Source of the DNA: an uncultured Muribaculaceae bacterium
Lineage (GTDB): Bacteria > Bacillota_I > Bacilli_A > RF39 > UBA660
DNA: 55,737 nt
Direction: 5' to 3'
Assembly: GCA_964458035.1 (NCBI GenBank)
Contig: CAYWFZ010000005.1
Coordinates: 1-55,737, forward strand
Positions 7,226-7,545 of the stretch are shown in pieces. The first letter of the stretch is position 1. Each line of letters starts with the position of its first letter. Under the pieces are notes generated by a model. It saw only the letters and a list, made by a program, of their open reading frames with translations. It ran no database searches and was not told where the DNA came from. Position numbers and translations under genes: made by a program.

Positions 7226-7255
7226 TTGTATAAAAAAACTAATAAATGTTATAAT
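7226..7255 (+). promoter_or_regulatory. Sigma-A promoter of candidate antitoxin sRNA 1
   Basis: TTGTAT (7226-7231), 18 nt spacer, extended TG-n-TATAAT (7250-7255); no plus-strand gene follows. Confidence 0.7.
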
Positions 7256-7261
7256 TAAGTT

Positions 7262-7343
7262 GGTGAGAAGCAGATTATCTCTTGGGTATGATGCTTACCA
7301 CATAGTTTTTGCATCTTTATTCAGAAGAATAAAGATGTTTTTT
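7262..7343 (+). ncRNA. Candidate antisense (type I antitoxin) sRNA 1, about 80 nt
   Basis: Promoter, 5' stem-loop and terminator hairpin GCATCTTTATTC-AGAA-GAATAAAGATGT with T tract; homologous to 44555-44643; ends inferred. Confidence 0.65.
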
Positions 7344-7344
7344 A

Positions 7345-7416
7345 TTACCCAAATAGTATGAGTAATAAAATAGTAATCGTTTGGATTAGCATTATTAGGT
7401 CTTTCAAATTAATCAC
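7345..7416 (-). CDS. Small hydrophobic peptide, candidate type I toxin (MINLKDLIMLIQTITILLLILFG)
   Basis: GTG start 5 nt after SD AAAGAGGTG; single TM-like stretch; SD is complementary to upstream 7475-7484; paralogue at 44648-44722. Confidence 0.72.
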   Translation of the reverse strand: MINLKDLIMLIQTITILLLILFG

Positions 7417-7536
7417 TATATCACCTCTTTACTTCAAAAAAACAAAACCCCCTGAATTTTTCACCCAAGGTATTAGAGGTGATAAACATCTTTTCTGCTT
7501 CTCGAGTGTGTATACTAACACGCCCATATAAAATAA

Positions 7537-7545
7537 TTTGTCGAA
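7537..7545. promoter_or_regulatory. Spo0A box (0A box)
   Basis: TTTGTCGAA, perfect TGNCGAA consensus, upstream of the peptide transcript. Confidence 0.6.

Follow-up and report, generated by a model that had tools for sequence, protein, structure and literature searches.

The window analysed here is a 55,737-nucleotide (nt) stretch of DNA (contig CAYWFZ010000005.1 of GenBank assembly GCA_964458035.1, positions 1 to 55,737) from an uncultured bacterium titled Muribaculaceae and placed by GTDB in the lineage Bacillota_I; Bacilli_A; RF39; UBA660. A 442-nt spacer at positions 7140–7581, flanked by two minus-strand genes, contains a cassette of two convergent parts. The minus strand carries a small open reading frame (ORF) for a hydrophobic peptide, preceded by a Shine–Dalgarno (SD) sequence within a 5′ untranslated region (5′ UTR), and the plus strand carries a candidate gene for a small RNA (sRNA) that runs towards the end of the ORF (Table 1). 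An initial annotation had likened this layout to the type I toxin–antitoxin (TA) loci of Gram-positive bacteria. Comparison with related cassettes, for which 76 unique modules from metagenome-assembled genomes (MAGs) of uncultured gut Bacilli form the main set, indicates that this spacer contains a single member of a multi-copy family of type I TA-like modules specific to the lineage, a reading to which we give a probability of about 0.7.

Table 1. Coordinates of the cassette, of the genes beside it and of the second cassette in the window (aa, amino acids; bp, base pairs; T6, run of six T).
Feature	Positions	Strand	Basis or remark
Candidate toxin ORF, 23 aa, GTG start, MINLKDLIMLIQTITILLLILFG	7345–7416	minus	predicted from sequence
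SD region AGAGGTGATA	7419–7428	minus	pairs with anti-SD
Anti-SD TATCACCTCT in 5′ UTR	7475–7484	minus	10/10 complement of SD region
Candidate antitoxin sRNA, ~81 nt	7263–7343	plus	fold and family alignment
sRNA promoter −35, TTGTAT	7226–7231	plus	sequence
sRNA promoter extended −10, TGTTATAAT	7247–7255	plus	sequence, conserved family-wide
sRNA terminator hairpin, 12-bp stem, then T6 (7338–7343)	~7311–7338	plus	hairpin and T-run
Predicted toxin mRNA, ~241 nt, through sRNA gene	7263–7503	minus	covariation of box 1/1′ and no T-run on this strand
Box 1, GAGAAGCAG, predicted mRNA 5′ end	7495–7503	minus	pairs with box 1′, 7265–7273
Box 2/3, GATGTTTATCAC	7479–7490	minus	pairs with box 2/3′, 7290–7301
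Box 4, CTTGGGTG, hypervariable 5′ UTR segment	7462–7469	minus	pairs with box 4′, 7281–7288
3′ partners 2/3′ (7290–7301), 4′ (7281–7288) and 1′ (7265–7273)	7265–7301	minus	antisense to sRNA 5′ half
Purine-rich SD-like 5′ UTR element, TTCAGGGGG	7448–7456	minus	conserved in alignment A1 and module alignment
Toxin promoter extended −10, TGTTAGTAT	7512–7520	minus	conserved family-wide
Upstream motif TTCGACA	7539–7545	minus	conserved, just upstream of toxin −35
115-aa ORF	6792–7139	minus	spacer neighbour, next gene on toxin strand
174-aa acetyltransferase-like ORF	7582–8106	minus	spacer neighbour
Second cassette, subtype B (diverged), peptide MINRRLLDIIVLLLIIILLLIIKG	~44516–44885	minus
Second cassette, sRNA	44557–44644	plus
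Second cassette, ORF	44651–44722	minus

Conserved parts of the cassette

The perfect 10-bp match between the SD region and a segment of the 5′ UTR, as first annotated, is present in the window. Alone, it is not beyond chance, because 225 of 2,000 first-order Markov simulations of the AT-rich 442-nt spacer contained a perfect 10-bp inverted repeat with a loop of 3–60 nt. The anti-SD:SD helix, however, takes 45 distinct forms across 66 modules, with a mean duplex energy of −14.9 kcal/mol for cognate and −10.6 kcal/mol for non-cognate combinations, and the SD is predicted from this covariation to be sequestered by the 5′ UTR anti-SD. Because this helix co-varies and the whole unit recurs 12 times in the genome and again in relatives, we regard the original observation as real. 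A chance ORF lying beside a chance inverted repeat would be in keeping with the 11% of simulated spacers that hold such a repeat and with a scan that found five promoter-like sites in the spacer against 6.9 expected, without enrichment; it is already refuted by more than 100 homologous modules with four co-varying helices and a conserved ORF.

On the plus strand, the annotated extended −10 promoter is present together with a −35 element, and both the promoter and the RNA that it would produce are conserved. The −10 matches at least five of six positions in 72 of 75 modules and has the TG extension in 69, and the promoter stands 6–8 nt from the conserved RNA start GTGAGAAGCA in 73. The non-coding stretch described as about 80 nt long measures 81 nt here and is predicted to fold into a 5′ stem-loop, whose loop holds the variable box 4, followed by a linker and then the terminator hairpin; in the consensus structure derived from an alignment of 70 unique sRNAs (A2), the terminator shows compensatory pairs. 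The T-run of this terminator ends one base short of the complement of the peptide's stop codon (7345–7347). Read along the sRNA strand, the nine nt after the hairpin include at least six T in 73 of 75 modules; along the mRNA strand, no module of the 75 has such a run, and the hairpin is predicted to terminate the sRNA only. The initial annotation spoke of a convergent, 3′-overlapping sRNA: the convergent, 3′-side placement stands, whereas the sRNA does not overlap the ORF, and its overlap with the mRNA would lie in the 3′ UTR, as indicated by the covariation described below.

The toxin promoter is recognizable by its −10, which matches at least five of six positions in 56 of 75 modules and places the start of the mRNA at GAGAAGCAG, a sequence nearly identical to the start of the sRNA. 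A TGTCGA/TTCGAC motif lies at −68 to −37 in 54 of 72 modules, compared with one of 72 in a control stretch, and looks like a transcription-factor site controlling toxin transcription. Seventeen modules carry two copies of this motif 9–11 nt apart (TTTTGTCGAcaTTTGTCGAg). The string AATATTCGACAAAT, which lies upstream of the toxin promoter in the copies of this genome, also occurs at 12345–12362 on the plus strand with no module nearby; there are 11 sites of this type in the genome, four of them where modules were placed. The 8-mer ATTCGACA, considered as a genome-wide regulon mark, was discarded, as its 49 occurrences are about what base composition predicts by chance.

The annotated 23-aa ORF has counterparts throughout the family: 66 of the 76 unique modules have a homologous short ORF with an SD, ending just ahead of the hairpin. 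The family peptides are 22–35 aa long, fall into several alignable subtypes and share a plan in which a charged N terminus (xxKKD) leads into a single hydrophobic helix (IIIFILL) and the end is short and either basic or polar; the consensus is xxKKDxxIxxLxIIIFILL. Copies differ by in-frame insertions and deletions that retain the frame. In 118 same-length pairs, differences fall on the first, second and third codon positions 242, 140 and 423 times, and the ratio of non-synonymous to synonymous differences (pN/pS) is 0.23 in frame, compared with 0.51 and 1.27 in the shifted frames, for pairs that are not independent. By these measures, the peptide ORF is under purifying selection.

The coding signal bears on the idea that the ORF is an untranslated by-product within a non-coding repeat, an sRNA family or a miniature mobile element. 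Sequence conservation is higher in the non-coding parts than in the ORF, the module is repeated and assemblies break there, and 10 of the 76 copies have no ORF under the rules applied, all of which would suit such an element. It is hard to reconcile with a frame kept through insertions and deletions, the excess of third-position changes, the in-frame pN/pS and a suitably spaced SD in 66 of 76 copies. The toxin promoter and the sRNA promoter are the exact limits of the homology, no terminal repeats or target duplications were seen at its ends, and the plasmids of PLSDB, the phages of INPHARED and the viral genomes of IMG/VR contained no match to the module. We consider a non-coding element highly improbable.

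Copy number and distribution of the module

When the spacer was used as a query against its own assembly (1.72 Mb in 107 contigs, 71% complete), three further full-length copies with 79–91% identity were found along with many partial matches, which represent a diverged subtype of identical architecture. A profile search with nhmmer placed 12 near-full modules in the genome, and a covariance model of the sRNA (R1) likewise found 12 copies. One of the diverged copies is the second cassette in the window (Table 1), which sits between two minus-strand genes and repeats the plan of the first in its promoters, anti-SD, long-range boxes and one-way terminator.

Two modules share a locus or contig in nine cases. 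Such tandem arrangements are common (G000:C21:6377–6724 with 6788–7166, and loci L044, L039, L047, L073, L078, L071 and L080), and the neighbours are sometimes of two different subtypes. Other copies appear decayed (L024, L038, L046, L089 and others), with a mismatch between box 1 and box 1′, a mutated SD or no ORF, which suggests that copies turn over.

The distribution of the module is narrow. By blastn, 15 of the 21 same-genus genomes contain it, compared with none of 19 from other genera, and among 150 genera of the family, sampled with one genome each by covariance model under the stricter filters of a large search, one further genus carries it. A pattern scan of one genome per species returned 75 loci, 63 of which contain the module by nhmmer; the remaining 12, in Treponema, Arthrobacter and others, were set aside as chance matches without a module. 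A scan of metagenomes added 42 new unique modules, several of them on contigs titled human gut metagenome, and relatives of the region are present in rodent-gut metagenome contigs from four runs, in which assemblies pile up or break at the repeat.

The record titles of the carriers are those of uncultured Bacilli or Firmicutes MAGs from Hadza human, mouse, ruminant and deer guts, Firmicutes bacterium CAG:582, Erysipelotrichaceae or Erysipelotrichales MAGs, and a few bins labelled Muribaculaceae. Two MAGs titled uncultured Muribaculaceae hold several modules (L058, L069, L073 and L074 on CAZHOG... contigs; L092 and L099 on CAYSFO... contigs). Every other carrier has a Bacilli or Firmicutes title, and the Muribaculaceae-titled bins may be mislabelled or mixed.

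This pattern of copies also informs the question of what the peptide does. An ordinary small membrane protein, such as a regulator or subunit, whose level is tuned by an antisense RNA would fit the lack of similarity to named toxin families: searches of Pfam and NCBIfam with ten representative peptides gave only chance-level matches at E ≤ 10, in agreement with the initial annotation, which had not recognized the peptide as a member of a named family. It would also fit the nearest feature-based look-alikes of a 31-aa member in the ESM Atlas, which are generic small membrane proteins with scores of at most 0.80, within chance. Peptides shorter than 30 aa are seldom called as genes in large protein collections. 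Housekeeping small proteins are usually single-copy and widely conserved, whereas here there are 12 diverged copies in 1.7 Mb, tandem pairs, and a patchy occurrence confined to two genera of the 150 sampled. Together with this copy pattern, the tight sequestration of the SD and the dedicated antisense RNA gene constitute a type I toxin signature, and we hold the ordinary-protein explanation to be improbable.

Several points tell against the assignment of the family as type I TA-like. In the window peptide, the hydrophobic stretch extends over only some 16 residues, and the ten modules that lack an ORF by our rules may be decayed copies or failures of the rules. The modules are relatives, such that the shuffle controls, the pairwise pN/pS values and all other statistics overstate independence. 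Furthermore, the pattern used for the species and metagenome scans fixed boxes 2/3′ and 1′, so that helices 1 and 2/3 gain no variation from loci found in this way. On the other side stand the selection on the ORF, the covariation of the SD helix, the conservation of the sRNA promoter and terminator, and the multiple copies, which support the Gram-positive type I layout put forward at the outset. We consider 'TA-like' to be the right strength for this claim, which derives from sequence comparison.

Predicted pairing between the ends of the putative toxin mRNA

The toxin strand has a 5′ UTR of roughly 90 nt, and inverted repeats within the spacer (pairs I13 and I14) give this 5′ UTR sequences that the sRNA contains in the same sense. 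Three segments of the 5′ UTR can pair with the region of the mRNA antisense to the sRNA 5′ half (Table 1). Box 1 comprises the first 9–11 nt of the mRNA, and its partner is the complement of the sRNA 5′ end. Box 2/3, with the family sequence GATGYTTATCAC, pairs with GTGGTAAGCATC, and box 4 varies in length from 5 to 13 nt across the family.

The pairing is supported by covariation in an alignment of 74 sequences (A1). In helix H1, 96.3% of the cells are paired and six of nine pairs show double changes, and in helix H23 the values are 97.1% and five of 12 pairs. Overall, 95.9% of the cells in A1 are paired, compared with 38–48% in slid controls, and 12 pairs show double changes, compared with 6.5 in shuffles; none of 500 shuffles reached any of the observed measures. 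Because box 4 shifts register between subtypes, it was tested without an alignment. The 74 modules contain 36 distinct complementary variants of box 4, with −12.0 kcal/mol for cognate and −5.5 kcal/mol for non-cognate pairs, and a repeat on 42 independent metagenome modules gave −12.5 versus −7.4 kcal/mol. An unbiased map of complementarity singled out just these three helices (1, 2/3 and 4) as cognate-specific.

The strand on which the pairing would operate is indicated by wobble pairs: a G–U extension of helix 2/3 is possible on the toxin (mRNA) strand in 46 of 52 distinct variants and on the opposite strand in 11, and for helix 1 the toxin-strand version is the more stable one in 44 of the 52. 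Because segments of the 5′ UTR co-vary with the mRNA 3′ region antisense to the sRNA, we conclude that the toxin mRNA probably reads through the sRNA gene and pairs its 5′ end with its 3′ end. Such read-through would make the toxin 3′ UTR a perfect complement of the sRNA, and, since the 5′ UTR boxes pair with that same 3′ UTR, the sRNA would be a same-sense mimic of the 5′ UTR.

A further conserved segment of the 5′ UTR may take part. The element TTATTCAGGGG (7448–7460, minus), which consists of the purine-rich TTCAGGGGG and the upstream TTAT, is same-sense with the 5′ arm and loop of the sRNA terminator (7312–7337) and thus shows complementarity, within the mRNA itself, to the 3′ hairpin at its loop and 3′ arm. 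This pairing yields no covariation because both of its sides are invariant. The 5′ UTR sequence AAAGATG also matches a hairpin arm. A hairpin with a T-run in the 5′ UTR (7450–7470) was considered as an attenuator and rejected, because other subtypes conserve neither its stem nor its T-run.

In the window copy, box 2/3 and the anti-SD share 6 nt (7479–7484), and in subtype B they share more, so that pairing of the anti-SD with the SD and pairing of the anti-SD with the 3′ UTR are mutually exclusive. The 3′ partner GTGGTAAG resembles the SD-proximal GTGATA. From this arrangement, we tentatively propose a switch as the most likely mechanism. In the nascent mRNA, the anti-SD would close the SD and translation would not occur. 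Once completed, the 3′ UTR would capture the 5′ UTR and pull the anti-SD off the SD, turning translation on. If the sRNA binds the 3′ UTR first, probably by a loop–loop contact at hypervariable box 4, the SD would stay closed, and the resulting sRNA/3′ UTR duplex of about 80 bp would be a likely substrate for RNase III. When the sRNA is exhausted, the peptide would be made and would insert into the membrane. In its most far-reaching form, the antitoxin would never touch the ribosome-binding site, acting instead as a 5′ UTR mimic that out-competes the 5′ UTR for the activating 3′ UTR, and the hypervariable 6–10 nt of box 4 would be the address that separates a dozen paralogous pairs. We put the odds of this mimic-and-address reading below even.

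Two calculations accord with the scheme. Complementarity between the sRNA and the initiation region is at chance relative to shuffled sRNAs (mean z −0.32; three of 66 modules below −2), and a par-like contact of the sRNA with the initiation region was discarded because this duplex is no better than one with a shuffled sRNA. Nearest-neighbour folding lends it mild support: the initiation region is slightly more open in the free full-length mRNA (unpaired probability 0.215) than with the 3′ UTR blocked (0.165; 34 modules up and nine down, of 66), and the three-helix conformer lies within about 3 kcal/mol of the SD-closed fold.

Other results count against the switch. The SD is mostly paired in both modelled states, and the minimum-energy fold of the window copy keeps the anti-SD:SD helix and forms only helix 1, for which reasons support for the switch's direction is weak. 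Not all of the three long-range helices can nest, and box 4 was treated as a pseudoknot with its energy added by hand. In addition, no conserved terminator was found on the toxin strand: any terminator-like site within 300 nt is present in 17 of 73 modules, at scattered distances. In the window, no terminator separates the cassette from the next gene on this strand (6792–7139), the promoter-like site of which lies at 7159–7188, and the 3′ end of the mRNA may be set by read-through into the neighbour or by polymerase collision at the sRNA promoter.

The same folds can be read in the opposite sense, as in hok and aapA1. The 5′–3′ pairing would then lock the mRNA in a stable, untranslatable and nuclease-resistant form, translation would need removal of the 3′ partner, and the sRNA would mainly trigger decay through the long duplex. 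In the full-length minimum-energy fold of the window copy, helix 1 closes the molecule while the SD is still sequestered, as such a lock would have it, and the paired state of the SD in both models agrees with it. A helix that sequesters the 5′ end stabilizes RNA I of par according to the available sections of PMC7472228, and those of PMC8594479 report other type I families in which 5′–3′ pairing blocks translation. However, box 2/3 overlaps the anti-SD, and long-range pairing should therefore open the SD; an active mRNA trimmed at its 3′ end would lose almost the whole sRNA target and hence escape neutralization; and the sRNA has no above-chance complementarity to the initiation region. We regard the lock as unlikely.

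Relation to known type I systems

At the sequence level, the module has the generic makeup of a type I system: a gene for a hydrophobic peptide of fewer than 60 aa, an antisense RNA gene with its own promoter and terminator, and control through the mRNA fold. It resembles bsrG/SR4 of B. subtilis in its small hydrophobic peptide gene, its convergent antisense RNA on the 3′ side and the placement of the SD in a helix; txpA/RatA, bsrE/SR5 and yonT/SR6 are further systems close to this layout. SR4 binds the 3′ end of bsrG mRNA, extends the sequestration of the SD and also promotes decay, as related in the available part of PMC3834814, and SR4/bsrG is the nearest mechanistic precedent. According to the available T1TAdb text, the antisense RNA lies on the 3′ side in all Gram-positive families, and in the 3′-overlapping ones it covers the 3′ part of the mRNA, including the end of the ORF, with each RNA having its own terminator. 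Here, the sRNA lies outside the ORF and is apparently covered entirely by the mRNA 3′ UTR, and the toxin mRNA lacks a terminator of its own (T-run in 0 of 75 modules). The module also differs from bsrG/SR4 in that Rfam, Pfam and NCBIfam reveal no sequence or profile similarity, and in that the target of its sRNA is the co-varying partner of the 5′ UTR in three segments, an arrangement that the accessible text of PMC3834814 does not describe.

The par locus of pAD1 (Fst/RNA II) shares the convergent promoters and the hairpin between the genes, and, as far as the available sections of PMC7472228 go, an SD-sequestering stem-loop together with a helix in which the extreme 5′ end of the toxin RNA is sequestered. 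Like Fst, the peptide has two charged N-terminal residues followed by a transmembrane helix. The Fst/Ldr signature given in the same sections comprises P/D/S/TXXXG(C) in the helix, a conserved Trp and a highly charged C-terminal tail. In the present family, there is no Pro/Gly helix motif, the tails have 0–4 residues, and Trp occurs only in the KLLWQ/KLLWP subtype, near the C terminus; none of the ten peptides matched a Pfam family, including the Fst toxin, at E ≤ 10. Whereas par has a bidirectional, shared terminator, the one here is one-way (73 of 75 versus 0 of 75 modules), and whereas the direct repeats DRa and DRb make the par sRNA complementary to the initiation region, the repeats here are inverted (I13, I14) and the sRNA is same-sense with the 5′ UTR. 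The module therefore lacks the defining features of par/Fst as set out in the part of PMC7472228 at hand.

With hok/Sok and aapA1/IsoA1, the module shares the central place of 5′–3′ pairing and SD sequestration in the toxin mRNA. In systems of this type, 3′ trimming activates the mRNA. The module differs from them in that its antisense RNA is encoded opposite the 3′ partner itself. The available portions of PMC8594479 and PMC6733600 support the shared features; the former describes SD/anti-SD and 5′–3′ long-distance pairing as hallmarks of type I toxin mRNAs and, for the hok/aapA1-type families, places the target of the antisense RNA in the 5′ leader or the ORF.

A check against Rfam returned only unrelated chance matches at E ≤ 10 (idnO, snoRNAs, sroE and others). 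Because no profile or covariance model of a named family matches, we file the module as an undescribed family, with a distinct predicted regulatory topology, set apart from named families by the Rfam, Pfam and NCBIfam profiles and by published descriptions. The surveys of Fozo et al. 2010 and T1TAdb, which list predicted toxin ORFs, predate these MAGs, and the literature consulted describes neither this family nor any type I system from Erysipelotrichales-like or CAG-582-like MAGs. The 5′ UTR-mimic topology would be one not described for any type I family in that literature.

Type I systems are difficult to detect, and few lineages are known to have them. The available part of a 2025 paper (PMC12390103) lists them only in Proteobacteria, Firmicutes and Tenericutes, and T1TAdb, by its available description, is restricted to genomes already reported in the literature. 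The family described here lives in uncultured, small-genome gut Bacilli outside curated type I resources, at about a dozen copies in 1.7 Mb. Its natural variants, over 100 in number, carry compensatory changes in four helices and offer a comparative view of toxin mRNA folding that is unusually complete; they also point to a testable mechanism in which a 3′ UTR and an sRNA compete for the 5′ UTR. If that mechanism is true, the 36 or more co-varying versions of box 4 would constitute a library of orthogonal RNA switches supplied by nature. Should the peptides prove toxic, the modules would be candidates for the stabilization of genome regions, phage defence or persistence in this poorly known gut lineage.

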